DNA from: Myxococcota bacterium
Lineage (GTDB): Bacteria; Myxococcota; XYA12-FULL-58-9; JABJBS01
NCBI GenBank assembly: GCA_036339465.1
Contig: JAYZAY010000071.1
Coordinates: forward strand, 1-54,174
Direction of reading: 5' to 3'
DNA length: 54,174 nt
Both the position numbers and the translations under genes were made by a program. Each line of letters begins with the position of its first letter. The first letter of the stretch is position 1. Positions 26,081 to 53,696 of this stretch are shown one piece after another. Under the pieces are notes generated by a model, which was not told the DNA's origin, did no database searches, and saw nothing but the letters and a program-made list of their open reading frames with translations.

Positions 26081-26082
26081 AC

Positions 26083-29805: not shown

Positions 29806-31621
29806 TCTCGAAGAGAGCTTGAGGGAAGCTGGTTATCTTGATGCTGTGGATGTCGCGATGAGTCGGTCTATGGGGCTATCTGAGAGTCTTGACCGCTTAG
29901 GTACGATACTTACTAATCTGGCGATGAAGAAGTCCCACACCTGTGTCAAGGTTGGGCACAGCGAGTTTCGCGAGCTAAGGAGTGATCCGGCACTGGTTGA
30001 TTGTTTCGAGAAAGCAGGGTTTGGCTGGGAGGATGTTGTTGCAAGTTTAGAGGGGCATCGTTTCGATAAAAGTCTTATTTATGACAATGGTCTTCTTTCC
30101 TTTAGAAAGACATTCCTGGAAGAAGAGGTGGTGGCCCGTTTCTTTAGAGATGGCCAAGAAAAGCCGAGGCTTGAGACATGGGCGAATGCGAAATCGATGT
30201 TTCGACTCCTTTTTGAGAATGTGGCGCCGGATAAATTGGTAACAAAACAGGCGGTGGCGACTTTGCTTGCGGGTGTCTTGTCCCGTCTTATTCTGACAGG
30301 AGGACCAGGTACGGGAAAAACTTTTACCACCACCAATATGCTTTGGATGATGATCGCAACGGGGACGACCGGGCTCTCGTCGAGTCAGCGGTGGCGCGTA
30401 GCGCTTGCAGCGCCCACCGGGAAAGCGGCCACTCGCTTGAGAGATGCGATTGAAGTAAGGTGGGGGGAATTGTTTGAGAAACTGCCGAAACCGGCTTCGG
30501 TGGATATGACGGCCACAACCCTACATCGACTTTTGGGAGTCAACCAATACGGGCGTGTTAGAGTTGGTCCTGAGAATCCCTTACCCTATGATATTGTGGT
30601 GGTGGACGAATTATCCATGGCTTCTTTGGATTTGGTTGCCGCATTGCTCCATGGATTGGCCAGCCACACACGGCTAATTTTTGTCGGAGATCCCCAACAA
30701 CTACCATCGATACAGCCCGGTAATGTCATGGCGGATTTGTGTGGAAATGAAGTTCTAAATCGTTGTCACAGTTCTGAGCTCGTCCAACATATTGAAGAAC
30801 TACTTCTCTTGAGTGATGTAACTGCCACCCTTCAGAGCGGAGCGGATTTGATCACGCACCTTGAGGAAACCCGCAGATTCCAAGCCGATTCAGGTATTGG
30901 TGTTTTGGCGCGGATCTTTCAAATGCAGGTTGAATCGAGAGTGAAGGCTATCCTTTCTCGGACCGACATGCACCAATATGAGGATCTCAGTTGGTTTTCA
31001 GAACAAGATGCAAAGGTAGAGTTCTTAGGTCGGGGGGTGGAGCAGGCAGCTCGCATTCGTGAATCTATGTTGCGTGGTGATATCGCCGCCGCTTTTGAAT
31101 CACTTTCCTCTTTTCGGATCTTGTGTCTCCAGAAGCAGGGGCCCACTGGGGTTCATTTTATGAATCGAGAGATCAGGCGACGTTTGGCGCTGGTTGAAGG
31201 GGAAGACACTTCGGGGCATTTCATCGGATTGCCGATACTTATTTTGGAGAATGACCCGGGCTTGGGGCTCTATAATGGGGATGTAGGTATCATCGGTGAA
31301 GGGGGGAATGGTGGGGGTAGATTGTACGTGTTCTTTGAAACGGAAGAGGGTTTGCAGCGCTTGCCCTTGGAACTTCTGCCTCAGTATGATGATGTTTACG
31401 CGATGACGGTGCATAAAAGTCAAGGGTCTGAATTTCAGGAGGTGGCGATTTTGTACGGGGTCGATGAGCTGGAGACCATGTCTCGAGAGTTGTTTTATAC
31501 TGCGACGACACGCGCTCGTGAAAAATTACTCATCTCTGGGAAAGTCGGTGAACTCTTTTCTATTTGGCGCCGGAGGGTTAGGCGCTGCTCTCGATTGGCG
31601 GGGATGCTTTGGGGGACTTAG
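29792..31621 (+). CDS. recD: Exodeoxyribonuclease V alpha subunit (SF1B helicase)
   Basis: TGGPGTGKT, AAPTGKAA.RL, TLHRLLG, VVDELSM, GD..QLPS, L.NGD.G, AMTVHKSQGSEF and YTA.TRAR. Overlaps the recB 3' end. Confidence 0.95.
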   Translation: MPISDLEESLREAGYLDAVDVAMSRSMGLSESLDRLGTILTNLAMKKSHTCVKVGHSEFRELRSDPALVDCFEKAGFGWEDVVASLEGHRFDKSLIYDNGLLSFRKTFLEEEVVARFFRDGQEKPRLETWANAKSMFRLLFENVAPDKLVTKQAVATLLAGVLSRLILTGGPGTGKTFTTTNMLWMMIATGTTGLSSSQRWRVALAAPTGKAATRLRDAIEVRWGELFEKLPKPASVDMTATTLHRLLGVNQYGRVRVGPENPLPYDIVVVDELSMASLDLVAALLHGLASHTRLIFVGDPQQLPSIQPGNVMADLCGNEVLNRCHSSELVQHIEELLLLSDVTATLQSGADLITHLEETRRFQADSGIGVLARIFQMQVESRVKAILSRTDMHQYEDLSWFSEQDAKVEFLGRGVEQAARIRESMLRGDIAAAFESLSSFRILCLQKQGPTGVHFMNREIRRRLALVEGEDTSGHFIGLPILILENDPGLGLYNGDVGIIGEGGNGGGRLYVFFETEEGLQRLPLELLPQYDDVYAMTVHKSQGSEFQEVAILYGVDELETMSRELFYTATTRAREKLLISGKVGELFSIWRRRVRRCSRLAGMLWGT

Positions 31622-37993: not shown

Positions 37994-39088
37994 TCAGGGC
38001 GTGGGAGTTTTGAGTCTTGAGACAGAGAGGGACTTTGGAATTTGATTATCGTGACGCGTCAACAACTTACTTAGTTTTTTGGCTGTCCAGGGAATCCAGA
38101 GAGTTCCCTTTGATGCAAAGGCACTTAGAATAAATAGGTTTCGCATTTCGGGCACCGGCCCCACAACCGGAGACCGGTCGGGAGGTGCGGTCAAACGAGA
38201 TCCTCTCCATAGCTTGAGTGGATTGCTCTCTTTGATTTGAGCAATCCAGTGTGCCGCCTTCTCCAATAAAATGTTGGCAATCTCATCTTCGGATCCTGGT
38301 TCCTGTTCAGGATGGTGATAATAGGTTGATCCGAGAATCCAGGTATTCCAAGGGGTGGGGACCATGTGAACGCCGTTTCCACTCAGACCAACTTTTTTGG
38401 GAAGAGGAGATTTCCAATCTATTTCAAGGACGTGTCCCGCAATATTGCAGAAGGGGAGATTCGGCATAAGTTTTGAAATGGCACTTCCGGTGCATAGAAC
38501 CAGTTTATCGCTTTGTTGGGGGCCGCGCCCGGTTTCCATTCGCCACCCGTTGCCCTTTGCTTTAATGCTCGTTACTGGCGTTTCGATGATGGTCACCCCC
38601 TGTTTGACCAAGTACTGTTTGAGCCTCTGGCAGAGCTGATGGAGAGCGATGGATAAGCAAGATGGAAATGTAATGATTTCATCTGTGTTGTGGAGCCAAT
38701 CGGTGGTCTCTAAAAATATTTTTTGTTTCGATGCTTGGACGTGTTTCTCTAGGAGGTCACGGTTGTTTTCAAAACTTCGCTGGATCCGCTCTCCATAGCT
38801 ATTTGAATGAGAAAAAGGCCTCCATAATTCGATTTCAAGGATAGAATCTGCGGATGATTGTTTTTGAAACCAGTCAAGAGAATAGCTGAAAGCTTCAAGT
38901 GTGAATGGTTTTGGAGCGACCGATGGTCCGGGGGTAGGGTTTAATAACGCACATGGGAGCTGTGAGGCGGTGGGGTGCTGATGGCTGTGAAAGAGTTGGA
39001 TCTCTTTGCCTTCTACCCCGTCATTGATGAGGTGTGTGGCCAAAGAAAGACCACTTAATCCGGCTCCGATAATCGTGATTGTCGTCAT
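37994..39088 (-). CDS. FAD-dependent oxidoreductase, DAO family, like the C-terminal domain of MnmC
   Basis: IIGAGLSG, GSTY, R...PDRSPVVG and SKG. ATGA-coupled to the upstream MnmC-type methyltransferase. Confidence 0.78.
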   Translation of the reverse strand: MTTITIIGAGLSGLSLATHLINDGVEGKEIQLFHSHQHPTASQLPCALLNPTPGPSVAPKPFTLEAFSYSLDWFQKQSSADSILEIELWRPFSHSNSYGERIQRSFENNRDLLEKHVQASKQKIFLETTDWLHNTDEIITFPSCLSIALHQLCQRLKQYLVKQGVTIIETPVTSIKAKGNGWRMETGRGPQQSDKLVLCTGSAISKLMPNLPFCNIAGHVLEIDWKSPLPKKVGLSGNGVHMVPTPWNTWILGSTYYHHPEQEPGSEDEIANILLEKAAHWIAQIKESNPLKLWRGSRLTAPPDRSPVVGPVPEMRNLFILSAFASKGTLWIPWTAKKLSKLLTRHDNQIPKSLSVSRLKTPTP

Positions 39089-39888
39089 GGCGTGGGGGGC
39101 TTGGGGTTAGAGGGAGCCAAGTCTACTCCGATGGGCTGTTTTGATTTGGGCAATAGAGAGAATCCTTGGAGAGCATTTGCATTTGGCGATGCAATGGTCA
39201 TTTCTCGCTTTCCGGCACCGCCAGGGGCTTTGGCTGTCCAAAAACCGGCTCTGGCTAAGCTTTTTCTGATTTCGGAGGATGCACTGTAGGTCACCAAACG
39301 CGCGGTCGATCGGAGCCATGGTGCAATATGTTTGAAGGCTAGGTCAGTCCATGCGTCGGGATTTTCTTTTGGTCCGAATGGGTCGTGATAATGTGTGTCA
39401 AAAGAGGATGCGGGAAAGTCACAATCAAAGAGATCCCATGGAAGAGTTCTAAGATAAATATTCTTGAACTTGATTTGCAAAGGTTTTCTGGAGTTTGCAG
39501 CCTGGCTATTTCCATCCATGAGCATGCTGAGTAATGGAATTTGGAAATCGTGATTTCGGTGAACTTCTTCAAGGCAGGTTTGTGGCAGAGGGGACCGCTC
39601 AATCGCAGTATAATAAAGTGCGAATTGGTTAGAACTTTGAAGGAAGTACTCGGCGGTGTGAAGGAAATTAAGGCCCGTACCCAATCCCAGTTCCAAGACT
39701 GAAACATCTCTTTGGATATCGGCTATACCACTCGCCCTTAAGAAAACATGTTTGGATTCGGTGTGGGCACCATAGACAGAGCGGTAGGTGGTACTACTGC
39801 CCTTAAAACGGAGCGTATGGGCGCCATCCTTTGTTTCGATAACTTCAAGCATTTCTTTTTTCGCTTTTTTTGGTGGGGTAGTCGCCAT
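39085..39888 (-). CDS. mnmD: tRNA mnm5s2U34 methyltransferase (MnmC N-terminal domain/MnmD)
   Basis: T.DG..TL, Y.S..GA..ES.HVF, ELGLGTGLNF, D.F.P..NP..WT, TYS and GKREM. Start is 39888 or 39852. Confidence 0.88.
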   Translation of the reverse strand: MATTPPKKAKKEMLEVIETKDGAHTLRFKGSSTTYRSVYGAHTESKHVFLRASGIADIQRDVSVLELGLGTGLNFLHTAEYFLQSSNQFALYYTAIERSPLPQTCLEEVHRNHDFQIPLLSMLMDGNSQAANSRKPLQIKFKNIYLRTLPWDLFDCDFPASSFDTHYHDPFGPKENPDAWTDLAFKHIAPWLRSTARLVTYSASSEIRKSLARAGFWTAKAPGGAGKREMTIASPNANALQGFSLLPKSKQPIGVDLAPSNPKPPTP

Positions 39889-40045
39889 TTGAGGGGGCCT
39901 ACCATGGGGTATTTTTGTGAACAAGTGAAAATCTTGAGCTAGAATTTTTTGCGTTGGCGCAATCTAAATTTGCCGTTGACCGGTGGCATGGTCTGGGTTA
40001 GCTCACCTTTCTTGTGGGGTTGTTCTAGTAGGTGAGGGCTTATTC

Positions 40046-41737
40046 ATGGTTTGTTTTAATTCGGAACGTATGGAACGTGCGCCTGCTAGGGCGATGTTAA
40101 AGGCCACAGGTCTTACTGATGAGGATTTAGAGAAACCCTTGATCGCGGTAATGAATACGTGGTCTGAAGTAACACCCTGCAACTTTCATCTGGATAAACT
40201 TGGAGCAGAAGTAAAGGCCGGAATTCGTGAGGCCGGTGGTACTCCAATTGAGATGAATTCCATTGTTGTTTCCGACGGGATCAGCATGGGGACGCCGGGC
40301 ATGAAGATGTCCTTGATTTCTCGAGAAGTCATTGCTGATTCCATTGAAGTGGCGGTTAGGGCACATAATTTTGATGCCGTGGTCGTCTTATGTGGATGCG
40401 ACAAAACGATTCCCGCTGCGGCTATGGGCGTGGCTCGGTTGGACCTTGCGTCGGTCATCCTTTACGGTGGTTCCATTATGCCGGGAAATTTCAAAGGCAG
40501 TAATGTGACGATTCAGGAGGTTTTTGAAGCGGTTGGGGCCTGCGCAGCGGGACGTATGGAGCTTGAAGAGTTGCGTATTCTCGAGGATGAGGCTTGTCCC
40601 GGGGCGGGTGCTTGCGGCGGGCAATTCACAGCAAACACGATGTCTTGTGCCCTGAGTGTTTTGGGGCTTTCACCCATGGGGTTTAATGATGTTCCCGCTG
40701 AAGATCCCCGTAAAAAAAAGGTGGCTTTCGAGTCTGGCAAGTTGGTGATGGATGTTTTGAAAGCCAACCGGAAACCGGGGGACTATATCACCCGGGATAG
40801 TTTGCGTAACGCCGTCGCCATAACCGCGGCCACGGCGGGTTCAACCAATTCGGTACTTCACCTCTTGGCCATCGCCAGAGAATTCGGGGTTGCTTTTGGC
40901 TTGGAGGATATCGATGAGATTATGGCGGCCACACCGGTGGTGGCGGATTTAAAGCCCACGGGGCGCTTTATGGCCCCAGATTTTGATAAGGCCGGTGGTG
41001 TGCCTTATTTAGTTCGGGAAATGATTGCGAGAAACTATTTAAAGGATGCCATGACAGTCACTGGGCGAATGTTGAGTGAGGAATGTGCGGATGCCGTTTC
41101 CCATGACACCCAAGGTGTCTTGAAATCTTTCGATGAGCCCTTAAAGCCGCGGGGGGGACTTGCTATTTTGAGGGGAAGTTTGGCTCCTGATGGCTGTGTT
41201 ATTAAGGTTTCGGGTCAGGCGCAGATGAATTTTACAGGACCGGCTCGGGTTTTTGAATGCGAGGAAGACTGTTTTGAAGCTTTGCAAGAGGGCAAGCTAA
41301 ATGAAGGCGATGTGATAGTGATTCGCAATGAGGGTCCCAAGGGTGGGCCCGGCATGCGAGAGATGTTGGCGGTGACGGCGGCTTTAGCGGGACGGGGGAT
41401 TCTGGATAAGGTGGCCTTAATTACCGACGGCCGATTTAGTGGTGCAAGTCATGGTTTTGTTATTGGGCATGTGGCGCCTGAAGCTTTGGTGGGTGGTCCC
41501 ATTGGGATGGTTCAGAATGGGGATATTATTCACATTGATGTTGATACACGCCAAATTGAGATTCAGGTGGATCTCGAAATGCGAAAGGTCGCAGATAAGC
41601 CCGCGTCGCAAGAGGATCTTCCTCGGACTGCGGTAAAATATGCATGTTTGGTCTCATCTGCTTCTCTCGGGGCGGTTACAGCCTTTCCTGAATATTCAAA
41701 TGGATTTATGCCCAGTGAAGATTGCCAATCGGTTTAA
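40046..41737 (+). CDS. ilvD: Dihydroxy-acid dehydratase
   Basis: [52 protein letters not shown] and ITDGRFSG. Confidence 0.97.
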
Positions 41738-41895
41738 GCAACCTCACGAGCGAAGCTTTCTGGCTTCCGGTGAAAGCGGTGGATGTTTTGGGATTGCAGG
41801 GATAGTTTGCTAGGGGATTTTAGCGATAGGATGTTCTTATTTCACCCACCACCTGAGTTTTGTCCCAAAAAAAATGACGCAGAGCAAAATAAATC

Positions 41896-41924
41896 TTGAC
41901 GAAGAAGATTCGGCCGTTTACGAT
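41896..41924 (+). promoter_or_regulatory. Sigma70-type promoter of the ilv-leu leader/operon
   Basis: TTGACG (41896-41901), 17-nt spacer, TACGAT (41919-41924), preceded by an A-rich tract. It lies 29 nt before the leader ATG. Confidence 0.75.
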
Positions 41925-41953
41925 TTCTTGAATTCAGGAAAAATAGAACGAAC

Positions 41954-42109
41954 ATGAAGAGCCTAGGGCAACCATTAAGAGCAAGTACAAACGCAGCGGA
42001 TGTTTTATCCTTCGTCGCTCGGTTGGTATCTTCACGCATTATCGAGGCCCTCCTCGTACTTGTCATTCTTCTCATTGTACTTGGCATCGGCCTGCGAGGT
42101 GGTGGTTAG
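41954..42109 (+). CDS. ilv/leu attenuator leader peptide (51 aa)
   Basis: Translates as MKSLGQPLRASTNAADVLSFVARLVSSRIIEALLVLVILLIVLGIGLRGGG*, with 11 consecutive Leu/Val/Ile codons at 42050-42082. Absent from the ORF track. Confidence 0.85.
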   Translation: MKSLGQPLRASTNAADVLSFVARLVSSRIIEALLVLVILLIVLGIGLRGGG

Positions 42110-42141
42110 GACTTGTTCACAACCTCCACCTCGCAGGCCGA
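42087..42141 (+). promoter_or_regulatory. Antiterminator hairpin of the attenuator
   Basis: TCGGCCTGCGAGGTGG (42087-42102) is the exact reverse complement of CCACCTCGCAGGCCGA (42126-42141), extended by GGTT/AACC. It shares 42137-42141 with the terminator stem. Confidence 0.88.
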
Positions 42142-42175
42142 CCCGCTCGAACATAAGCAGGTCGGCTTTTTTTTT
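42137..42175 (+). terminator. Intrinsic terminator (attenuator) upstream of ilvC
   Basis: GCCGACC-c-GCT ... AGC-a-GGTCGGC stem followed by nine T's (42167-42175). Confidence 0.9.
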
Positions 42176-42196
42176 GATTAAATTGGGAGCTAAAAA

Positions 42197-43192
42197 ATGA
42201 AATTGGCAGAAACAACAGAAGCAAGCAGCAAGATTTTAGAGCAAGTGCCCATTGCGGTTATTGGTTATGGGGCCCAGGGTAGGGCTCAGGCACAGTGTTT
42301 TAAGGATTCCGGCTTGGATGTTACCGTCGGTGTTCGACCGGATGGCGCTTCTTGGCAATTGGCCCAAGAAGTTGGCATGAAGGTGGCAAGCATTGCCGAG
42401 GCATCAAAAAAGGCTCAGCTTATTCATATTCTTATCCCTGACGAGGTCCAGCGTACTGTCTACCAGAAGGAGATTGCTCGCCATGTAACCTCCGGTAAGA
42501 CCGTTTCATTCTCCCATGGTTTCAATATCCTCTATGGTTACGTTGCGCCGCCGGATGATGTCGATTGTATTTTAGTAGCCCCAAAGGCCCCAGGCACCGA
42601 AGAGAGAAAGGCCTATCTAGAAGGCAGCGGCGTACCTGGTTTGATCGCTATTCAGAACGATGCATCGGGAGATGCGCGCAACAAGGCATTGGCATTGGCC
42701 GATGCTCTGGGATGTACCCGTGCGGGTGTTTTGGAATGTTCCTTCGAAGACGAAACATTTGAGGACCTTTTTGGGGAACAAACCGTTCTTTGTGGGGGGG
42801 TAGCAGAACTCATAAAGGCAGGTTTTGAGACGTTGGTTGATGCTGGTTACCCACCCGAAATGGCTTATTTCGAGTGTCTCCACGAACTGAAACTTATCGT
42901 CGATCTCATTTATGAAGGGGGCCTAGAGCGTATGTGGGACGTGGTTTCGAATACGGCCGAATACGGTGGGAGAATGGTGGGACCGAAAATTATAACGCCG
43001 GCAACTCGAGACGCGATGAAGACGGCTTTGGGCAGAGTTCAAAGTGGTGAATTCGCCAAAGAATGGATGCAAGAATATGAGTCGGGAATGAAGAACTTAG
43101 ACAAGCTTCGCGCAGAGGAACGTCAGCATCCCATTGAAGTTGTGGGCCGCAAAGTACGTAGCCTTTTTAAGAGAGTAGAAGCGAACCACTAA
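42197..43192 (+). CDS. ilvC: Ketol-acid reductoisomerase
   Basis: IAVIGYGAQG.AQA, PDE, FSHGF, VAPKAPG, DLFGEQ.VLCGG, AYFECLHELKLIVDL and SNTAEYG. Confidence 0.97.
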   Translation: MKLAETTEASSKILEQVPIAVIGYGAQGRAQAQCFKDSGLDVTVGVRPDGASWQLAQEVGMKVASIAEASKKAQLIHILIPDEVQRTVYQKEIARHVTSGKTVSFSHGFNILYGYVAPPDDVDCILVAPKAPGTEERKAYLEGSGVPGLIAIQNDASGDARNKALALADALGCTRAGVLECSFEDETFEDLFGEQTVLCGGVAELIKAGFETLVDAGYPPEMAYFECLHELKLIVDLIYEGGLERMWDVVSNTAEYGGRMVGPKIITPATRDAMKTALGRVQSGEFAKEWMQEYESGMKNLDKLRAEERQHPIEVVGRKVRSLFKRVEANH

Positions 43193-43210
43193 GGGACTGG
43201 GGAGTCGGTC

Positions 43211-44821
43211 ATGAATCAGATCTTTATCTACGATACAACACTTCGAGATGGAACTCAGGGGGAGGATTTCCAACTCTCTGTCCCAGAGAAACTGGCCATC
43301 ACGGAGATCCTAGATGATTTTGGCTTTCATTATATTGAAGGAGGATGGCCGGGGTCCAATCCTCGCGACGAGGAATATTTTAAGAAAGCTCGCCAGTTGG
43401 TATTAAAAAATACGAGACTGGCTGCTTTTGGCTCAACACGTAGGGCAGGGGTCAAGGCATCGGAGGATGCCAATCTGCTAAAATTGGTATCTGCCAAGGT
43501 CCCCGTAGCAACTATTTTTGGAAAATCATCTCGCTATCAGGCTGAAACGATTTTGAAAGTTAGCGCGGAACAAAATCTCGAAATGGTTTTCGATAGCGTT
43601 AACTACCTTAAGGCCCATTTTGATGAGGTGATGTTTGACGCAGAGCACTTTTTTGATGGTTACGTCAGTTCGCCAGACTATGCCATGAAGGTGTTGGGTG
43701 CGGCGTTAGAGGCTGGGGCGGATTTTGTGGTCCTATGTGATACCAATGGTGGGAGCCTACCCCATCAAGTGTCGGCTGCGGTTGAAGCTGTGAAGAGAAA
43801 ATTTGATTGCTCCATTGGTATTCACGCCCATGATGATTCTGGTCTAGCCGTAGCGAACTCTTTGGAGGCGGTACGTATGGGGGCATCATTGGTGCAGGGA
43901 ACGGTCAACGGGCACGGTGAACGCTGCGGTAATGCGAATCTGATTACGGTAATTCCCAATTTACAGCTCCAGATGAAAAAGAACTGTCTCGGACCGGGCC
44001 GCCTACAAGGGTTGACCCGGTTGTCTCGAACCCTTGATGAGATGACCAATTATGTTTCGAATCCGCAGCAGCCCTTTGTTGGGCGGCGCTCTTTTTCCCA
44101 TAAGGGAGGAGTCCATATCAATGCGGTGATGAAAGACACAGGGTCCTATGAGCACATTCGGCCGGAAGAAGTCGGTAACCGACGTCGAATTTTAGCTTCG
44201 GATCTATCTGGATATTCAGCCATCGTCTTAAAGGCCCGTGAATTTGGTTTAGATCTGGATTCTCAGAATCCTCTGACTCGAAAGGTTTTAGAGAGGGTTA
44301 AGGATTTAGAGTATGAGGGATACCAATTCGAAGGAGCGGAAGCTTCGTTAATGCTTTTGATGCACGAGGCTGCGGGCACTCGAAAGGAGTTTTTCAGGTT
44401 TCATTCCGCGACGGTGACCACCGACCTGACGGCCGAACCGAAGACTGTTGGCGAGAGTTCGAAGGCTGTTGTTGATCTTGAAGTCGAGGGCCGTCGGGTT
44501 CAGAGCCATCAAACGGGAAATGGTCCAGTACATGCTCTCGCGAATGCATTTCGAGATGTTCTTGAACTTGCCTATCCCGAACTTCGTGAAGTGCGGTTGG
44601 TAGATTATAAGGTTCGCATTTTGAGTAGTGGCAACGGTTTTGCAGCGACCGTACGCGTTTTGGTCCAGGCAACCGATGGACGGCAAACGTGGGGAACGGT
44701 GGGCGTAAGTACAAATATTGTGGAAGCCAGTCGTAAGGCTGTGACTGATGCGCTGGAAACAAAGCTTTTTCGTGAACGTAATGCTGATGGAAGTAGCGCT
44801 TCTTTAAAAAAGGTAGGGTAA
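43211..44821 (+). CDS. cimA: (R)-citramalate synthase
   Basis: YDTTLRDGTQGE, YIEGGWPGSNP, AFGSTRR, FDAEHFFDG, LCDTNGG, HKGG.H and GYQFEGAEAS. This is the bacterial CimA subfamily, distinct from the adjacent LeuA. Confidence 0.9.
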   Translation: MNQIFIYDTTLRDGTQGEDFQLSVPEKLAITEILDDFGFHYIEGGWPGSNPRDEEYFKKARQLVLKNTRLAAFGSTRRAGVKASEDANLLKLVSAKVPVATIFGKSSRYQAETILKVSAEQNLEMVFDSVNYLKAHFDEVMFDAEHFFDGYVSSPDYAMKVLGAALEAGADFVVLCDTNGGSLPHQVSAAVEAVKRKFDCSIGIHAHDDSGLAVANSLEAVRMGASLVQGTVNGHGERCGNANLITVIPNLQLQMKKNCLGPGRLQGLTRLSRTLDEMTNYVSNPQQPFVGRRSFSHKGGVHINAVMKDTGSYEHIRPEEVGNRRRILASDLSGYSAIVLKAREFGLDLDSQNPLTRKVLERVKDLEYEGYQFEGAEASLMLLMHEAAGTRKEFFRFHSATVTTDLTAEPKTVGESSKAVVDLEVEGRRVQSHQTGNGPVHALANAFRDVLELAYPELREVRLVDYKVRILSSGNGFAATVRVLVQATDGRQTWGTVGVSTNIVEASRKAVTDALETKLFRERNADGSSASLKKVG

Positions 44822-44825
44822 GGAT

Positions 44826-46394
44826 ATGCCGAAGGATTTTGTGCAGATTTTTGACACGACCCTGAGGGATGGCGAACAGTCTCCTGGGGCGACGATGACT
44901 CAACAAGAGAAGATCCGTATTGCACGGGCCCTCGATGAGATGAGTGTGGATGTATTGGAGGCGGGGTTTCCGGCCGCGAGCCAGGGAGAAGTCGAATCGG
45001 TTCAGGCGGTTTCGAAGGCCGTGGAAAATGCGACGGTGGCCGCGCTATGTCGAACGCGAGAAAATGATATCGCAAAAGCCATGGAAGCTCTTTGCTTTGC
45101 CAAGCATAAAAGGCTGCATGTCTTCATTGCCACCAGCGACATCCATTTAAAATATAAACTAAAAATGAGTCGGGCGGAGGTTTTGAAGCAAATTGCTTTT
45201 GGTGTGGGAGCTTGTGCTTCCTTGGTGAGCGACGTGGAGTTTTCAGCCGAAGATGCGACACGCACGGATATTGGCTTCTTAAAGGAGGCAATGGCTTGTG
45301 CATTGGAACATGGTGCAAGAGTCCTAAATGTACCTGATACCGTGGGCTACACCACTCCTAATGAATTTTTCAAGATGATCGAAGCTGTTGTTGAATTGGC
45401 AAATCCTTATAATGCGATTGTTTCTGCGCACTGCCATAATGATTTAGGCTTGGCGGTTGCGAACTCACTGGCCGCCGTTCAAGCGGGTGCTCGCCAGGTT
45501 GAGGGTTGTATTAACGGTTTAGGGGAAAGAGCGGGCAATGCGGCCATCGAAGAAGTGGTGATGGCTCTCCGAACGCGCCAGGGTTTGTATCACTGTGATA
45601 CTAGGATCGAAACGGAAAGAATATTTTCTATGAGTCGCCTGGTGAGTGAGATCACCGGTTTTACTGTTCAGCCGAATAAGGCAATTGTGGGCAAGAATGC
45701 TTTCGCCCATGAGTCAGGTATTCATCAGCACGGTGTTCTTGAAGAGAGAGAAACCTATGAAATAATTGATCCTAAAGATGTGGGTATTCCGGAATCAAAT
45801 ATTGTTTTAGGCAAGCACTCGGGACGACACGCATTACGCGACCGACTAAGCCAGCTTGGATACGAAGTCGACGATCTCGAATTGAAACGGGTTTTTCTGG
45901 AATTCAAGGACCTAGCCGATCGTAAGAAAAATATTTACGACGAAGACCTCCATGTTTTGGCCAATCGATTGGGTTATGAGACGGAGCAGAGCTTCAATTT
46001 GGTAAATGTCAATTTCACCGGTTCCAAAGACGCAGAGGGAACTGCGCATCTAGAATTGATGACTGTGGATGGCACGGTTGTGAAAGAGGCCACTGGGGAT
46101 GGTCCGGTTCATGCGGTCTTCGAAGCTCTCAAGGCCTGTACGGGATTCTCAGATATTCGGTTGGTTGATTATCAGGTGTCGGCTGTTTCCAGTGGTTCGG
46201 ACGCCCAAGGTCGAGCAATTGCACGAATTGAGACTGAATATGGTCTGGTTCAAGGGCACGGAACTCATACCGATGTGGTCGTCGCCAGCGCCCTGGCTTT
46301 TGTGGATGCAGCGAATGCGCTTTGTGTGAAGGTCATAAATGAGGAGTTAATCGAGAAAAACAACAGAAATAAGACGGAGGCGAAGGCATCATGA
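44826..46394 (+). CDS. leuA: 2-isopropylmalate synthase
   Basis: FDTTLRDGEQSPG, EFSAEDA.R, PDTVGY, HCHNDLGLAVAN, GERAGN, FAHESGIHQ.G and a C-terminal regulatory domain. Confidence 0.97.
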   Translation: MPKDFVQIFDTTLRDGEQSPGATMTQQEKIRIARALDEMSVDVLEAGFPAASQGEVESVQAVSKAVENATVAALCRTRENDIAKAMEALCFAKHKRLHVFIATSDIHLKYKLKMSRAEVLKQIAFGVGACASLVSDVEFSAEDATRTDIGFLKEAMACALEHGARVLNVPDTVGYTTPNEFFKMIEAVVELANPYNAIVSAHCHNDLGLAVANSLAAVQAGARQVEGCINGLGERAGNAAIEEVVMALRTRQGLYHCDTRIETERIFSMSRLVSEITGFTVQPNKAIVGKNAFAHESGIHQHGVLEERETYEIIDPKDVGIPESNIVLGKHSGRHALRDRLSQLGYEVDDLELKRVFLEFKDLADRKKNIYDEDLHVLANRLGYETEQSFNLVNVNFTGSKDAEGTAHLELMTVDGTVVKEATGDGPVHAVFEALKACTGFSDIRLVDYQVSAVSSGSDAQGRAIARIETEYGLVQGHGTHTDVVVASALAFVDAANALCVKVINEELIEKNNRNKTEAKAS

Positions 46395-47470
46395 ACCAGA
46401 TCTTTAATCTATTATTGTTGCCGGGTGATGGAATCGGTCCCGAGGTGATGGAAGAGGCGAAAAAGCTCCTCGATTTGGTCGCTTCCAAATCTGATTATGT
46501 CTTTGAATATGCTTGTGCTGATTTTGGTGGGGCGAGTATTGATGCCCACGCAACTCCTCTCACAGATGAGGTCTTAAATCTCGCAAAATCCGCCGACGCT
46601 GTCTTGTTGGGGGCAGTGGGCGGTTCTAAGTGGGATGATCTAAAAGGCGAAGAGCGTCCGGAATCGGGTTTGTTGAAACTCCGATCCGCATTGGAAGTCT
46701 ACGCGAATATTCGCCCGGCAAGATTTTACAGTGGGCTTGGGGATGGTTCGCCACTCCGAGATTCTGTTTCCGAAGGGGCCAACTTGGTTATTGTTCGTGA
46801 ATTAACCGGCGGCATCTATTTTGGCACACCACGGGGGGTTTCCCAAAATGGAACCAGCGGCTGGAATACCATGACCTATCATGACTATGAGGTGAGACGC
46901 ATTGCGAAAGTTGCATTTGAGGTGGCCCAAAACCGCAAAGGAGAACTCACGAGCGTGGATAAAGCCAACGTTCTTGAAGTTTCACGGCTTTGGCGAGACG
47001 AGGTTGAAAATCTGCACGGCTCTTATGGCGATGTTAAGTTGAATCATCTCTATGTTGATAATTGTGCGATGCAATTGGTTCGTGCTCCTAAATCTTTCGA
47101 TGTTATTGTTACGTCGAATCTGTTTGGTGATATCCTGTCTGACTTAGCAGGTGCTATGACGGGGAGTCTTGGAATGTTGCCGTCGGCGTCGGTGGGAGAA
47201 GGAAACGCCTTATACGAGCCTGTTCACGGAAGTGCACCAGACATTGCTGGCCAAGGAATGGCCAACCCCATTGGGATGCTCTTAAGCGTCGCGATGTTTT
47301 TTGAGCATACGGTGAAGGACGTGACGATTGCACGGAAGATAGAAGAAGCCGTAGAGGTTGCCTTGGGGAAAGGCAATCGCACTCGAGATATCGCAGTGGG
47401 TTTTGAAAATGAAACGCCAGTTGGTACCGATGAAATGGGTGCTGCTATAAGACAAGCATATTTGGGCTAA
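46391..47470 (+). CDS. leuB: 3-isopropylmalate dehydrogenase
   Basis: LPGDGIGPEV, LLGAVGG, RELTGGIYFG, VDKANVL, N.FGDILSD and EPVHGSAPDIAG. Confidence 0.97.
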   Translation: MNQIFNLLLLPGDGIGPEVMEEAKKLLDLVASKSDYVFEYACADFGGASIDAHATPLTDEVLNLAKSADAVLLGAVGGSKWDDLKGEERPESGLLKLRSALEVYANIRPARFYSGLGDGSPLRDSVSEGANLVIVRELTGGIYFGTPRGVSQNGTSGWNTMTYHDYEVRRIAKVAFEVAQNRKGELTSVDKANVLEVSRLWRDEVENLHGSYGDVKLNHLYVDNCAMQLVRAPKSFDVIVTSNLFGDILSDLAGAMTGSLGMLPSASVGEGNALYEPVHGSAPDIAGQGMANPIGMLLSVAMFFEHTVKDVTIARKIEEAVEVALGKGNRTRDIAVGFENETPVGTDEMGAAIRQAYLG

Positions 47471-47485
47471 GCGAGAGAGGTTGAT

Positions 47486-49306
47486 ATGTCGTCGTTGGCA
47501 CGTAAGCGTGAAGGGTCGGGGGTCGCGTTGCTTAAGAAATCGAAGGTTTTGAGGCGGGATGCTATCAGTCCCTACTTTGAGGTTGCAAAGCTTGAAGAAG
47601 GTGAGACTCTTTTGATTTCGAAGGTGCACGGCATTGAACTTCTTCGTCTGGTGCTAACCAACAAAGGAACTGCCTTTAGTGAGGCGGAGCGGGTGGACCT
47701 CGGGTTGGATGGTTTATTGCCACCCAAAGTTTGTCAGATAGAGGAGCAGCTAGACAGAGCCTACGAAAATTTTCTTAGGCAAGCCAATCCCATTGATAAA
47801 TATCAATACTTGAGAGGGTTACAAGAACGACAAGAGGTGTTGTTTTATGCCTTGGTGTGTCGACATCTCAAGGAAACGCTTCCTATTATCTATACGCCCA
47901 CGGTTGGGGAGGCGGTCAGCCGTTTTTCGGCCTTATTTGAGACGCCGCGAGGGTTGACGGTCACCCCCGAAAACATCGACCGAATTGATACTATTTTGGA
48001 TAACTATCCGCTTCAGGAACCTGAGCTTATGGTGGTGACAGATTCTTCAGCCATTTTGGGAATCGGCGATCAAGGTGTGGGTGGGTTGGCTATATCCATC
48101 GGTAAATTGGCTCTTTATACCGCTGCGGGTCGAATGAGCCCCTTCAGGACGATTCCCGTTTGCCTCGATTGTGGCACCAACCAAGAAGGTCTGCGCAGTG
48201 ATTGCCAATATATTGGGCGTCAGGAGGACCGACTCGGCGGCGATGGTTATTTTGATTTTGTCGACCGATTCGTGGCCGCCGTTGGTAGGAAATGGCCCAA
48301 GGTGGTGATCCAATGGGAAGACTTATCTAAAGATACCGCATTCGACGTTTTGTCGCGTTATCAAGACTCTATCAGTTCATTCAACGACGATATTCAAGGC
48401 ACCGGTGCTGTGGCCCTTGCGGGTCTTTTAAGGGCGGTGAAGATTGCGCATTTAGATTTTTGTAAGCAGAAGATTGCGATTGTAGGGGCGGGAGCCGGTG
48501 GTTTGGGTGTGGCCTTAGCCATTCGCGGTGAGTTGCAGCGAGAAGGATTGTCGGCAGAGGATATTTCGGAGTGTCTGTTTGTCTTTGATTCGGGAGGACT
48601 GATGCATGAGGGTAGAGGCCTTGTTGGTATCAAGAAGCAATTTGAGACGCCTATGCATTGTGTCAGTGATACGGTGAAAGGAAATAGAGTATCCCTCGAT
48701 GCGGAATTCATTGGTGTACAAGGGATAACCACCCTGATTGGGTTGAGTGGTCAACCTGGTTTCTTTTCTGAGTCAATGGTGAGGGGGATGGGTGAGAATA
48801 CTTCTCGTCCCATCATTTTTCCGTTGTCCAATCCCACTCGGTTATCAGAAGGGGTTCCCGAGGTCTTGATGGAATGGACCAGAGGCAAGGCCATTGTGGC
48901 CACGGGGAGTCCGTTTCCCGACGTACCACTGAAAAGTGGGACTGTGATGCGTGTGGGCCAAGGGAACAATGCTTTTGTGTTTCCAGGATTGGGGGTTGGT
49001 GCAGTCTTGACTGGCGCGAGCCGAATCACCGAGGGCATGGTGGCAACGGCGGCGCATGCCTTGGCGAATTACATGACCGCACGGTTTGGGGATGATGATA
49101 CGGTGTATCCGGATGTAGCGGAATTGCCAATGGTGAGTAGAGTGGTTGCGCGAGAAGTGGCGCTCAAGGCCATTGAAGAGGGTGTAGGCACTAAGTGCTT
49201 CAAGGACGCCGTAGCTGTCGAAGATGCATTAGACGATTTTTTATGGAAACCCAATTACTTTAAAATTGTGTCGGAAAAATTATTTGAGAGGGAATACGAG
49301 TGGTGA
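47486..49306 (+). CDS. maeA: Malic enzyme, large (MaeA/SfcA-type) oxaloacetate-decarboxylating malate dehydrogenase
   Basis: [68 protein letters not shown] and GQGNN..VFPG. Confidence 0.9.
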
Positions 49307-49311
49307 AAAGA

Positions 49312-50724
49312 ATGGGTAAGACGCTCTATCAAAAGGTGTGGGAAAACCATATAGTAAAAACTTTGCAAGATGGGCGAGATCAGGTCTTTATCGGTTTACA
49401 TCTGGTGCATGAGGTTACAAGTCCCCAGGCTTTTGGAATGTTGAAGGAGAAGGGACTGAGGGTTAAGTATCCCGGTCGTACCTTTGCGACCGTGGACCAT
49501 ATTATTCCCACAGATGATCCCGTGCGGCCATTCCAAGATGCGAAGGCTGAGGAAATGGTGGCGGCTCTATATGAGAATACACAAGACCACGATATCAAGT
49601 TCTTTGACCCAGCGTCCAACAAGCAGGGTATTATCCATGTGATTGGCCCAGAGTTGGGTCTCACACAGCCGGGAATGACTATTTGCTGTGGGGATTCTCA
49701 TACTTCCACCCATGGTGCTTTTGGGGCTCTCGCTTTCGGAATAGGCACGTCGCAGGTACGTGATGTGCTTGCCACTCAAACCTTGGCCATAAAACGCCTG
49801 AAGGTTCGTCGCATTGAGATTGAGGGTGTCTTGGGCGATGGGGTCTACGCCAAAGATGTCATTTTGCATGTGATTAGGCAATTGGGTGTACACGGTGGTG
49901 TTGGATTTGCCTATGAATTTGGTGGTAGCGCCATCGACTCCATGGAAATGGAAGCGCGGATGACCCTTTGTAATATGGCCATCGAGGGTGGTGCTCGCAT
50001 CGGCTATGTAAACCCCGATCAGAAGACGTTTGAGTATTTAAAGGGCCGTGCATATGCACCGGATGAAAAATGGGAGGAAGCGAAGGCCTATTGGACCGGG
50101 ATTCAAAGTGACCCAGATGCGGACTACGATGACCTTGTGCGCTTTGAGGCAGAAGTTATCAAGCCTACGTTGACGTGGGGGGTTAATCCTGCCCAAGCGA
50201 TTGAAATCGGTGAGGCTTTGCCGGTTATGGAATCCGAGTCTGCTAAGGATGCTGCCAAGTATATGCACCTAGGGGATGTAGACTCTATGCTGGGAGTTCC
50301 GGTGGATGTGGCGTTCATTGGTAGTTGTACCAACGGGCGCTTGAGTGACCTCCGTGAAGTGGCCCGAGTGGTTCAAGGGCATAAGGTTCATGAACGGGTT
50401 CGGGCCTTGATTGTGCCGGGGTCTATGAAGGTAGCATTAGAGGCGGAAGCTGAGGGTATTTCTAAAGTCTTACGAAATGCGGGATTTGAGGTTCGGCAAC
50501 CCGGTTGTTCAATGTGTTTGGCTATGAACCCCGATAAGTTAGTCGGGGATGAGCTTTGTGTTTCGTCGAGCAACCGGAATTTTAAAGGTCGGCAAGGGAG
50601 TAGCTCAGGTCGTACTGTTTTGATGAGTCCGGTTATGGTGGCAGCGGCAGCGGTAACTGGTGCCATTGCAGATCCCAGAGAAGCATTTGGTAAAGGGTTG
50701 AGGTGCAGTTATGGCAATGAGTGA
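49312..50724 (+). CDS. leuC: 3-isopropylmalate dehydratase large subunit
   Basis: [49 protein letters not shown] and NRNF.GRQG. An alternative GTG start at 49303 overlaps the malic enzyme stop. Confidence 0.97.
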
Positions 50725-51313
50725 GACCAAAAGGGTAGGGCGGGGCGTATTTATTCCAGGGAATAATTTGGACACCGACCAGATCACACCCGCCAGATAC
50801 TTAAAGTGTGTTACGTTCGACGAACTTTCAGGGACGCTTTTTTATGATGAGCGTTTTGACTCCGATGGCAACGAAAAGGAGCATCCCATCAACGATCCGC
50901 GATTCAATGGGGCGGGTGTTCTCTTGGTGGGTAAGAATTTCGGTTGTGGCTCATCTCGAGAACATGCACCCCAGGCGATCAAACGTTGTGGCTTTAAGGC
51001 CATCGTGGGCGAAAGTTTTGCTGAGATTTTTCAGGGGAATTGTACGGCACTTGGTGTGCTTTGTGTCACTGCTTCTCAGCCAACCATCGAGAAACTGGCA
51101 AAAGGTATTGAGATGGCTCCGTCTGCGGAAATCGAGATTGATATTGAGACCCAAAGGGTTTCTTCTTTGGGGGCTGAGTATAAATGTAGGATTGATAGCT
51201 CGGTGCGGGATGCGTTTTTGCGGGGCGCATGGGATCCTTTGGATACTCTTCTCTCAGCTGGGGCAGAAATCGATGCAACCTTTAAACAATTACCATATTC
51301 GGGGTGGGTGTGA
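50711..51313 (+). CDS. leuD: 3-isopropylmalate dehydratase small subunit
   Basis: [22 protein letters not shown] and SFAEIF.GN. Confidence 0.96.
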
Positions 51314-53166
51314 TGTCGAGTTTTTCTAAACCCAATTTACGTATCGTGCGGTTAGCAGACGTCGCTGAAAATAAATCTATGGAGGCTACATCGCTTAAGT
51401 ATCAAACGCCAGCGGCGGGCACATTAACCGAATCCGATGCGACGGGTTTTTGCCCAGAGGAAGCAGTGAGTGGGGCTGAAGCTTTGGTTGAATGTTTGGC
51501 GCAGCATGGTGTTCCATGTGTGTTTGGATATCCAGGCGGGGCCAATATTCCCATTTTCGATGCTATTTTGGATTCGCCCATTGAATTGGTTCTTTGTCGC
51601 CATGAGCAGGGTGGAACCCACATGGCGGATGGCTACGCAAGAACAACCGGAAAGGCTGGTGTGGTCTTGGTTACTTCGGGACCAGGTGCGACCAATACGG
51701 TGACCGGCATTCTTACGGCGCAGATGGATTCTGTTCCTATGGTTGTGATCACCGGTCAGACGGTCACGGGAAACTTGGGACTTGATGCTTTTCAGGAAGC
51801 CGACGTGATGGGGATTACGATGCCCACGGTTAAACACAGCTACCTCGTTAAACGTGTCGAAGACCTGACGCGCATTGTAAAGGAAGCGTTTTATGTTGCC
51901 GAATCGGGGCGTCCGGGTGTGGTCTTGATCGACATTCCTAAGGATGTCTCAGCCAAGAAATATGTGCCAGATTACAATCCTATTTTTGAATTACCAGGGT
52001 ATCATGTGCAAACGGATTTCGAAGAGGCGAAGGTGCAGGAGGTCGCCGAGGCTTTAAGAAAAGCTAAGAAACCCCTGATTTTGGCGGGTCATGGTGTGCT
52101 CATCTCCGGGGGCTCGAAAGCTCTTGCGGAGTTTGTGGAGGGCTATCAGCTTCCCATTACCAACACGCTGCTTGGGAAGGGAAGTTTTCCGGAAACCCAT
52201 GCGTTAAGCGTGGGCATGTTGGGAATGCACGGCACGGCTTATGCCAATAAGGCGGTGGTGGATTGTGACCTGATTATGGCGGTTGGTTCAAGATGGGACG
52301 ACCGAATCGTGGGTAAGGTGTCTGAATTTTGCCCAAATGCACTGAAGATCCATGTGGATATCGATCCTTCTGAATTTGGTAAGATGATTCAGCCAGATAT
52401 TTCGGTGGTGGGTGACGCGCGGCGGGTTTTAGAGCGATTGGTGGAGATTAATACGCCGGGTGATACCAGCGCTTGGCGGGCAAAGGTCGGGGCTTGGAAA
52501 AAGGATTTTCCTTTGACCTATGCAAAGGATGAGGTGCTTCGGGCTCAAGGGGTGATTGAGGAGCTTTACAAACAAACCGGCGGGCGGGCAATCGTGTCAA
52601 CGGACGTGGGTCAGCACCAAATGTGGGCAGCGCAGTTTTTTCGATGTGATCTTCCGGATTCTTGGATCTCTTCAGGGGGCGCGGGCACCATGGGGATTGG
52701 GTTTCCTGCTGCCATTGGTGCACAAATGGCGAAACCGGATGAACTTGTGGTGGCCATTGTGGGGGATGGTGGTTTTCAGATGACCCTCTGTGAATTGGCG
52801 ACGGCGGTGATCCAAAAACTACCGATAAAAGTTTTGATTATCGACAACAAATATCTCGGTATGGTTCGGCAGTGGCAGCATTTGTTTTACGACAATCGCT
52901 TGTCTGGTGTGGATCTGCATGGAAATCCCGACTTTGTCGCATTGGCTGCGGCCTATGGCTGCAAGGGTGTGAAGATTTCTTCGGTCGGTGAACTCAAAGC
53001 CAAGATGGCCGAGGCTCTAGCCTACAACGATGGGCCTTGTATCATTCACGCCGAGGTTTGTTCAGGAGACAACGTTTATCCGATGATACCAGCCGGAGCA
53101 TCTTTGGATGAAATGCTTTTGGGGCCTCCGGTTGCGAAATTAGAGAAACCAGAAGGGAGTACGTGA
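51313..53166 (+). CDS. ilvB: Acetolactate synthase large subunit
   Basis: FGYPGGA, RHEQG..HMADGYAR, TSGPGATN, DAFQE.D, TDVGQHQMW and GDGGFQM (TPP motif). TGATG coupling to leuD. Confidence 0.96.
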   Translation: MSSFSKPNLRIVRLADVAENKSMEATSLKYQTPAAGTLTESDATGFCPEEAVSGAEALVECLAQHGVPCVFGYPGGANIPIFDAILDSPIELVLCRHEQGGTHMADGYARTTGKAGVVLVTSGPGATNTVTGILTAQMDSVPMVVITGQTVTGNLGLDAFQEADVMGITMPTVKHSYLVKRVEDLTRIVKEAFYVAESGRPGVVLIDIPKDVSAKKYVPDYNPIFELPGYHVQTDFEEAKVQEVAEALRKAKKPLILAGHGVLISGGSKALAEFVEGYQLPITNTLLGKGSFPETHALSVGMLGMHGTAYANKAVVDCDLIMAVGSRWDDRIVGKVSEFCPNALKIHVDIDPSEFGKMIQPDISVVGDARRVLERLVEINTPGDTSAWRAKVGAWKKDFPLTYAKDEVLRAQGVIEELYKQTGGRAIVSTDVGQHQMWAAQFFRCDLPDSWISSGGAGTMGIGFPAAIGAQMAKPDELVVAIVGDGGFQMTLCELATAVIQKLPIKVLIIDNKYLGMVRQWQHLFYDNRLSGVDLHGNPDFVALAAAYGCKGVKISSVGELKAKMAEALAYNDGPCIIHAEVCSGDNVYPMIPAGASLDEMLLGPPVAKLEKPEGST

Positions 53167-53696
53167 TGTCTGTGACAGCCCTAGCGAGAGCACACACCAT
53201 TGGTCTTTTATTGAGTAATAAAGCGGGTGTTTTAAATCGAGTGACGTTGGTATTTAGTCGTCGTGGTTGGAATATCGATAGTTTGAGCGTCTCCCCGCGC
53301 AAAGACGAACGGATTTCTCATTGTACCATTGTTGCCCGCGGGGATTCGGCGACGCTCTTTGTTATTATGGGGCAGTTGCGCAAACTTGTGGATGTCATTG
53401 AGGCCGAAGAATATTTCGATGTGATGATGAATGTTCGAGAATTTGCATTGGTTCACTTGAGTGTCGAAGACGAGTCCTGGCAACCATTTCTCGCGCAATT
53501 TGATATTGAATGGACGGAATTGGAGCGCGTTGAACAAGCGGTGACGGTGGAACTCCGCGGAGGTTACCGTGCGGTGGATGAAACCTGCCGAGGGTTGGCC
53601 GATAGATTCCACGTTGTGAATCTCGTGCGCAGCGGTAAAATGCAGATAGAGCGAGAGGGGTATGGATTGGCTCAGAGCAAAGCGACTGGTGTCTAG
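53166..53696 (+). CDS. ilvN: Acetolactate synthase small (regulatory) subunit
   Basis: ACT domain N.AGVL.RV..VFSRRG.NIDSL.V and QLRKLVDV. C-terminal RE.AL and VRSG. TGATG coupling to ilvB. Confidence 0.9.
   Translation: MSVTALARAHTIGLLLSNKAGVLNRVTLVFSRRGWNIDSLSVSPRKDERISHCTIVARGDSATLFVIMGQLRKLVDVIEAEEYFDVMMNVREFALVHLSVEDESWQPFLAQFDIEWTELERVEQAVTVELRGGYRAVDETCRGLADRFHVVNLVRSGKMQIEREGYGLAQSKATGV

Follow-up and report, generated by a model that had tools for sequence, protein, structure and literature searches.

A candidate ribosome-mediated attenuator for leucine, valine and isoleucine ahead of a nine-gene ilv-leu operon in a Myxococcota bacterium

We analyzed a stretch of 54,174 nucleotides from a Myxococcota bacterium (assembly GCA_036339465.1, contig JAYZAY010000071.1, positions 1 to 54,174), hereafter the window, in which ilvC is the first of nine genes of a putative branched-chain amino acid (BCAA) operon. 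Between ilvD and ilvC, a short open reading frame (ORF) with an uninterrupted run of Leu, Val and Ile codons is followed by two overlapping RNA structures. The elements of this leader region are as follows.

41896-41924, + strand, promoter-like site: TTGACG (-35), 17-nt spacer, TACGAT (-10), with 9 of 12 consensus matches in a consensus scan
41954-42109, + strand, leader ORF by translation: ATG at 41954, 51 sense codons, stop codon TAG at 42107-42109
42042-42049, + strand, candidate segment 1 (weak anti-antiterminator): TCGAGGCC, which can pair with 42089-42097
42050-42082, + strand, putative control-codon run: CTC CTC GTA CTT GTC ATT CTT CTC ATT GTA CTT, or LLVLVILLIVL, codons 33-43 of the leader
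42087-42141, + strand, putative antiterminator hairpin (segments 2:3): arms 42087-42107 and 42121-42141, each 21 nt and 95% complementary
42137-42175, + strand, predicted intrinsic terminator (segments 3:4): stem 42137-42147 with 42156-42166 (7 + 3 bp), T9 at 42167-42175

The promoter-like site, the 51-codon ORF, the hairpin and the terminator had been proposed in a first-pass annotation made from the letters alone, and all four were recovered on reanalysis. The ORF and its LLVLVILLIVL run were confirmed by translation, the perfect 16-bp hairpin with its left arm over the last leader codons proved to be the outer part of the longer 21-nt arms, and the terminator was found to share GCCGA with that hairpin as had been described.

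The leader ORF ends 87 nt 5' of ilvC, on the same strand, and its translation gives the peptide MKSLGQPLRASTNAADVLSFVARLVSSRIIEALLVLVILLIVLGIGLRGGG. The 11 consecutive Leu/Val/Ile codons form the longest such run in the window in any of the six frames; eight runs of at least 6 codons are present, and the other seven are all exactly 6. For comparison, 80 ilvC loci (894 kb) were collected by an IlvC scan of genome contigs, the best IlvC identity being 66%, in an archaeon-labelled metagenome-assembled genome. These loci contain 119 Ile/Leu/Val runs of at least 6 in six frames, only 2 of which reach 10, and neither of those two occupies a leader position. The run in the window ends 4 nt 5' of the left arm of the hairpin, and the leader stop codon (42107-42109) is located at the hairpin apex. 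All six Leu codons of the run are CTC or CTT, which account for 35% of the Leu codons in 17 window genes, and each of the three Val codons is GTA or GTC, together 30% of the Val codons in the same genes. The choice of Leu and Val codons fits sensing via particular isoacceptors, although it was noticed post hoc.

The hairpin consists of 16 perfect outer base pairs, one mismatch and then 4 further base pairs. Its 16-bp stem is the longest perfect inverted repeat in the window (loop of 3-40 nt); the only other stem of at least 11 bp is 11 bp long, and the longest stem in 20 first-order Markov simulations of 54 kb was 12 bp. Long perfect intergenic palindromes are typical of elements resembling repetitive extragenic palindromes (REP) or miniature inverted-repeat transposable elements (MITE), and the region, holding such a palindrome between two genes, might thus be the remnant of a mobile or repeated element that landed upstream of ilvC. 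We consider this origin very improbable: with up to 3 mismatches allowed, the arm sequence is found in the window only at the two arms themselves, and a distant-mode DNA search of the region against 72,556 plasmid records returned no match.

As isolated elements, the hairpin at 42087-42141 and the terminator have folding energies of -42.1 and -16.7 kcal/mol, respectively. The region 41930-42200 as a whole folds at -86.5 kcal/mol vs. -71.2 +/- 4.7 kcal/mol in dinucleotide shuffles (z = -3.26), and 0 of 200 shuffles were as good. T9 is longer than the other four + strand T runs of at least 8 in the window, and it ends 21 nt from the ilvC ATG (42197), the only feature in the gap being a GGGAG ribosome-binding site. 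A simple terminator scan of 41500-42400 gave no terminator-like site, as the scan takes loops of 3-8 nt only and so missed the stem-loop 42137-42166. The bases GCCGA at 42137-42141 are common to both structures, being the last five of the right arm of the hairpin and the first five of the terminator, and the hairpin and the terminator are mutually exclusive. The run, the 16-bp hairpin and T9, each the longest of its kind, all lie within 125 nt, just 5' of a Leu/Val/Ile operon, and their arrangement is not due to chance.

The best-supported reading of this region, and one that we consider fairly probable, is transcription attenuation by a ribosome on a leader-peptide ORF, with Leu, Val and Ile sensed jointly. 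For this we infer a promoter, translation of the leader, ribosome stalling, coupling to polymerase and a response to the amino acids, in the following order. Transcription would start near 41931, possibly also reading in from ilvD, and a ribosome would translate the 51-codon leader. As long as charged tRNA-Leu, -Val and -Ile are in good supply, this ribosome would pass the run, move onto the left arm (42087-42107) and halt at the UAG in the apex. With the left arm covered, the right arm (42121-42141) would stay unpaired, its last five bases would join the stem 42137-42166, and transcription would terminate at T9. A shortage of any one of the three would stall the ribosome within 42050-42074 and leave the left arm free; the -42 kcal/mol hairpin would then capture GCCGA from the terminator, allowing read-through into ilvC-cimA-leuAB-mae-leuCD-ilvBN.

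The folding of the leader RNA was modelled with a ribosome block, in which the stretch from A-site -15 to +11 or +14 was blocked at each codon and the remainder was folded at equilibrium. In silico, formation of the terminator depends on the position of the block. In free RNA, the three basal pairs of the terminator beside the U tract form with P = 0.003-0.009. With the A-site on any of the nine codons at 42050-42074, P(terminator) is at most 0.10. A block at 42077 gives 0.002 with the +11 footprint and 0.99 with the +14 footprint, and from 42080 to the stop P(terminator) is at least 0.96, with 0.97 at the stop codon itself. The first-pass proposal that a stalled ribosome gives read-through and a ribosome at the stop gives termination is therefore matched by the block folding of the window RNA; it is on the controls that the same model fails.

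Several observations weigh against the attenuator reading, and those controls are among them. When the proven E. coli ilvL, leuL and ivbL attenuators were folded with the same script, P(terminator) stayed at 0.79 or higher, mostly at 0.94 or higher, at every ribosome position. Known antitermination is kinetic, so an equilibrium model does not reproduce it in the E. coli controls; the modelled switch in the window is suggestive, and the model is not validated. A truncated-RNA proxy, with the RNA ending before the 3' arm of the terminator, was noisy for the E. coli controls and the window alike. An automated search for the best antiterminator in the E. coli controls yielded multibranch structures, which were not trusted as the published antiterminators. 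In the folding model, the window element genuinely stands apart from the three E. coli attenuators by the dominance of its antiterminator: P(terminator) in free RNA is 0.98-1.00 in the trio (0.98 for ilvL, 1.00 for both leuL and ivbL) vs. 0.003 in the window.

A further point on the opposing side is the apparent lack of an effective anti-antiterminator. Segment 1 can form an 8-bp bulged helix with the left arm, and the best duplex of the upstream leader with this arm has an energy of -18.8 kcal/mol. The segment 1 helix is part of the minimum free energy structure of RNA ending at 42103, 42110 or 42130, and it is displaced once the right arm is present, losing to the 2:3 pairing of -41.6 kcal/mol. 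As modelled, the 1:2 helix is only vestigial. Consequently, of the ilvGMEDA/ilvBN-type geometry claimed by the first-pass annotation, the leader, the run, the antiterminator and the terminator are present, whereas the 1:2 pairing hardly is. Because the antiterminator far outweighs both the terminator and the weak segment 1, the one true peculiarity of this element, an untranslated leader should read through. Unlike the E. coli attenuators, the element may thus be a default-ON attenuator, in which termination occurs only while a ribosome occupies the left arm, a suggestion from the folding model that we put forward tentatively and regard as rather doubtful.

The leader itself raises difficulties as well. 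Its only Shine-Dalgarno (SD)-like element is AGGA at 41936-41939, 14 nt 5' of the ATG, and this is weak, with -4.3 kcal/mol vs. -6.3 to -9.5 kcal/mol for eight of the nine operon genes, the energies being calculated against what we take to be the anti-SD sequence. The start of E. coli ilvL, a proven attenuator, is likewise without a strong SD, as judged by eye only. The run is preceded by 32 codons, far more than in known leaders, so that coupling to polymerase would need a pause. A second + strand ORF in another frame (42000-42200, 66 codons) spans both hairpins and T9, and overlaps the ilvC start in an ATGA. This ORF lacks an evident SD and is probably incidental; its translation, should it occur, would disturb the termination switch.

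The 80 ilvC loci, of at most 66% IlvC identity, give the reading no help. Ten window proteins were compared by tblastn with the 80 ilvC loci, and none of the loci (0/80) has the ilvD-leader-ilvC-cimA layout. Likewise, an Ile/Leu/Val run of at least 8 ahead of ilvC or ilvB was found in 0/80 loci; six runs of this length exist within the loci, all of them elsewhere. ilvB is located 5' of ilvC in 61 of the 80. Upstream of ilvB, 12 of these 61 have a small ORF in which Ile, Leu or Val fill at least 6 of 8 residues; the longest run in these is 6, and a T run is nearby in 1 only. In 14 loci chosen for their lack of an ilvB match upstream, no small ORF before ilvC has more than 6 Ile/Leu/Val in any 10 residues. 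The 80-locus set is thus a source of neither homologues nor positive controls of the attenuator.

Curated RNA families are also silent. At gathering score, Rfam has no match anywhere in the window, hence none to a leader family (e.g., Leu_leader), and only a tRNA in six of the comparison loci. At E <= 10, 12 matches were obtained in 41000-43000, all far below gathering scores: ten microRNA-precursor models on the hairpin region, the suhB small RNA (sRNA) model overlapping it, and small nucleolar RNA and sRNA models elsewhere. Even at this threshold, no T-box or riboswitch family matches the leader. Judged from its sequence, the element would act like the leaders in Rfam but belongs to none of their families by sequence, so the curated families are excluded and the mechanism is not. 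Such leaders are reported to turn over fast and to share no sequence between phyla (PMC5314783, PMC2965389). The missing Rfam match, given this fast turnover, does not exclude the mechanism.

Some of the same observations would suit a different explanation, in which the hairpin and the terminator are real without being controlled by a ribosome and the ORF and its run are incidental. The region could then be a leaky antiterminated terminator, a stability or processing hairpin, or a switch operated by a protein, a small RNA or Rho. The antiterminator does win at equilibrium in free RNA, the leader SD is weak, and a length of 51 codons is by itself unremarkable. This explanation is nevertheless unlikely in our judgment. 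It leaves unexplained a run that has no counterpart in the window and is a great rarity across 894 kb of other loci, and a register, with the run ending just before the left arm and the stop in the apex, that chance does not account for. Moreover, the controlling factor would have to destabilize a -42 kcal/mol helix, and known antiterminator proteins do the opposite; among RNA sensors, the absence of even a low-scoring T-box or riboswitch match speaks against it as well. A precedent on its side is Streptomyces coelicolor, in which mutation of the regulatory codons of a predicted ilvB leader is described as having no effect, so that Ile/Leu/Val-rich upstream ORFs can occur without regulation (PMC1262725). 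This precedent is also one of the points against the attenuator.

Whether the leader peptide is a protein in its own right was considered from its sequence. A word search among proteins of 28-90 aa found no homologue, a HMMER search of 1.84 billion representatives gave 0 matches at E <= 0.001, and no Pfam or NCBIfam family scored above cut-off. The sub-threshold Pfam match was Ac45-VOA1_TM (E = 0.044, 14 bits vs. a cut-off of 25). In a protein atlas the best score was 0.78, which is within reach of shuffled sequences, and recognition was below the level of most real families. The peptide thus carries no sign of being a conserved protein. Its residues 29-47 (IIEALLVLVILLIVLGIGL) resemble a transmembrane (TM) helix, the core of which is only Leu, Val and Ile, with 4 residues (RGGG) between the hydrophobic stretch and the stop.

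The TM-like stretch, the Ac45-VOA1_TM match and an ORF longer than typical leaders could indicate a small membrane protein gene with a C-terminal TM helix and its own terminator, ilvC being expressed by leaky read-through. We find this improbable, more so than control of the hairpins by another factor. Two very large protein searches gave no homologue, and the atlas score falls in the range of shuffled sequences; most of the hydrophobic stretch would presumably still be in the ribosome tunnel at termination; the helix core consists only of the three amino acids made by the downstream operon; and the terminator is 21 nt from ilvC with no promoter in between. Under the attenuator reading, it is possible that the leader peptide with its C-terminal TM-like helix, or the terminated RNA of ~240 nt, has a second role in trans.

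Two other features of the leader were observed. A perfect 9-bp complementarity (41982-41990 with 42075-42083) links early leader codons with the last codons of the run, and could be a pause or structural helix of the long leader. An antisense ORF (41842-42087, - strand, 81 codons) covers the leader and the promoter; it fits no family of Pfam or NCBIfam and is probably a spurious call.

The region 41500-42400 contains five promoter-like sites vs. 1.0 +/- 0.9 in shuffles, and an A-rich tract is present just 5' of the site at 41896-41924. The transcription start near 41931 is a prediction from this promoter-like sequence. The consensus scan found no promoter-like site between T9 and ilvC. T9 is 21 nt from ilvC, too short a gap to hold a promoter, and every ilvC transcript must cross the terminator. 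ilvD (39983-41737, + strand) lies 459 nt 5' of ilvC on the same strand and outside the leader's promoter, and no terminator-like site was found by a scan between ilvD and the leader (including 41738-41895). ilvD transcripts may therefore reach the attenuator, and ilvD would not itself come under its control.

Downstream, nine ORFs occupy 11.5 kb of the + strand (42197-53696). Their names are from NCBIfam, each ORF being above cut-off for at least one model.

Start 42197, + strand, ilvC (reading frame 42197-43192)
Start 43211, + strand, citramalate synthase cimA
Start 44826, + strand, leuA
Start 46391, + strand, leuB
47486-49306, + strand, NAD-malic enzyme (NF010052, 643.6 bits), between leuB and leuC
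Start 49300, + strand, leuC
Start 50711, + strand, leuD
Start 51304, more probably the ATG at 51313, + strand, ilvB
53163-53696, + strand, ilvN

The spacing between the nine genes is -14 to +18 nt, from which a single transcription unit of 11.5 kb is a reasonable inference. Terminator-like sites inside the operon (12) are not above the expectation from shuffles (14.3 +/- 4.0). With cimA and without ilvA, all three BCAAs would derive from pyruvate, and a pyruvate-forming malic enzyme is thus plausibly at home in the operon.

BCAA-rich leader peptides with a terminator and an antiterminator are the standard control of ilv and leu genes in Gram-negatives, and are also described in Firmicutes and Actinobacteria (PMC6123439, PMC5864092, PMC5314783, PMC2965389, PMC1262725). 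The E. coli ilvGMEDA attenuator (ilvL), which is reported to respond to all three amino acids (PMC6123439), resembles the window element in its mixed Leu/Val/Ile codons, in a stop codon placed before or within segment 2, and in a terminator with a long U tract. The stop codon is 48, 42 and 52 nt from the T run in ilvL, leuL and ivbL vs. 57 nt in the window, and the terminator energies are -16.6, -13.4 and -16.6 kcal/mol vs. -16.7 kcal/mol. The dimensions of the window element are therefore close to those of the E. coli BCAA attenuators, apart from the length of the leader (32, 28 and 32 aa, respectively, vs. 51 aa). At equilibrium, on the other hand, the ilvL RNA adopts the terminator and the window RNA the antiterminator; the gene content also differs (ilvGMEDA vs. 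ilvC-cimA-leu-mae-ilvBN), and there is no sequence or Rfam relationship. E. coli ivbL, ahead of ilvBN, and leuL, ahead of leuABCD, follow the same logic as the window element while being terminator-dominant. According to the same source, ivbL senses Val and Leu, and leuL senses Leu, fewer amino acids than the three proposed for the window (PMC6123439).

A functional parallel comes from Rli60 of Listeria monocytogenes, in which one BCAA-rich leader gates the whole ilv-leu operon and responds to the three BCAAs, as shown experimentally with ATG, ribosome-binding site and terminator mutants (PMC5864092, PMC6123439). The first-pass annotation had called it unusual for one sensor of three amino acids to gate a whole ilv-leu operon, and Rli60 contradicts this. 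Its two other claims of peculiarity are upheld: the window leader is long (51 aa vs. 28-32 aa in E. coli and 13 aa in Listeria), and its antiterminator is very strong (-42.1 vs. -10.3 kcal/mol for Rli60). The terminators of the two are similar (-17.1 kcal/mol in Rli60 vs. -16.7 kcal/mol), and Rli60 is terminator-dominant, whereas the window element is antiterminator-dominant (PMC5864092). Listeria also adds CodY control to the Rli60 operon. In the actinobacterial ilvB leaders (Corynebacterium, Mycobacterium and Streptomyces), short ORFs with Ile/Val/Leu runs lie before terminator hairpins, or overlap them, 5' of ilvBNC (PMC1262725); these leaders are shorter and stand before ilvB, whereas the window leader stands before ilvC. 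In Bacillus, too, a terminator/antiterminator switch stands before a combined ilv-leu operon, in this case a T-box leader (PMC6123439). The T-box differs in sensing uncharged tRNA directly, with no need for an ORF, and the window has no T-box match at E <= 10. A limited literature search returned nothing relevant on such a leader with citramalate synthase, in deltaproteobacteria or in Myxococcota.

The closest IlvC proteins, encoded on short contigs, are 79% and 77% identical to that of the window, and those with a name include ones from Myxococcales/Deltaproteobacteria metagenome-assembled genomes (69-73%). Many metagenome-assembled genomes labelled as DPANN-type archaea are among the IlvC relatives (60-67%), a curious pattern for which gene transfer or mis-binning might be responsible. 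Elsewhere in the window, a recC-recB-recD cluster is located at 22733-31621 (+ strand). A word-limited search gave RecC relatives of no more than 25% identity, a hint that the lineage is thinly sampled. At 37994-39924 (- strand), mnmC is divided between two ORFs that overlap, one for an MnmC2 methyltransferase (39085-39924) and the other for an MnmC1-like oxidoreductase (37994-39088).

If confirmed, the element would be a Leu/Val/Ile leader attenuator specific to the lineage of a thinly sampled bacterium, and otherwise an expected kind of regulation. It would also be grounds for annotators to avoid labelling the 51-codon ORF as a hypothetical protein. With its very strong antiterminator, it would be a natural test of how far the anti-antiterminator is dispensable in ribosome-mediated attenuation. 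The putative attenuator precedes an operon that appears to take pyruvate to all three BCAAs via citramalate. Should the default-ON proposal be true, this operon would be switched on both by Leu/Val/Ile shortage and by any failure to translate the 51-codon leader. The leader would then report on translation capacity, in contrast to enteric attenuators, in which the opposite response, 'superattenuation', is seen.

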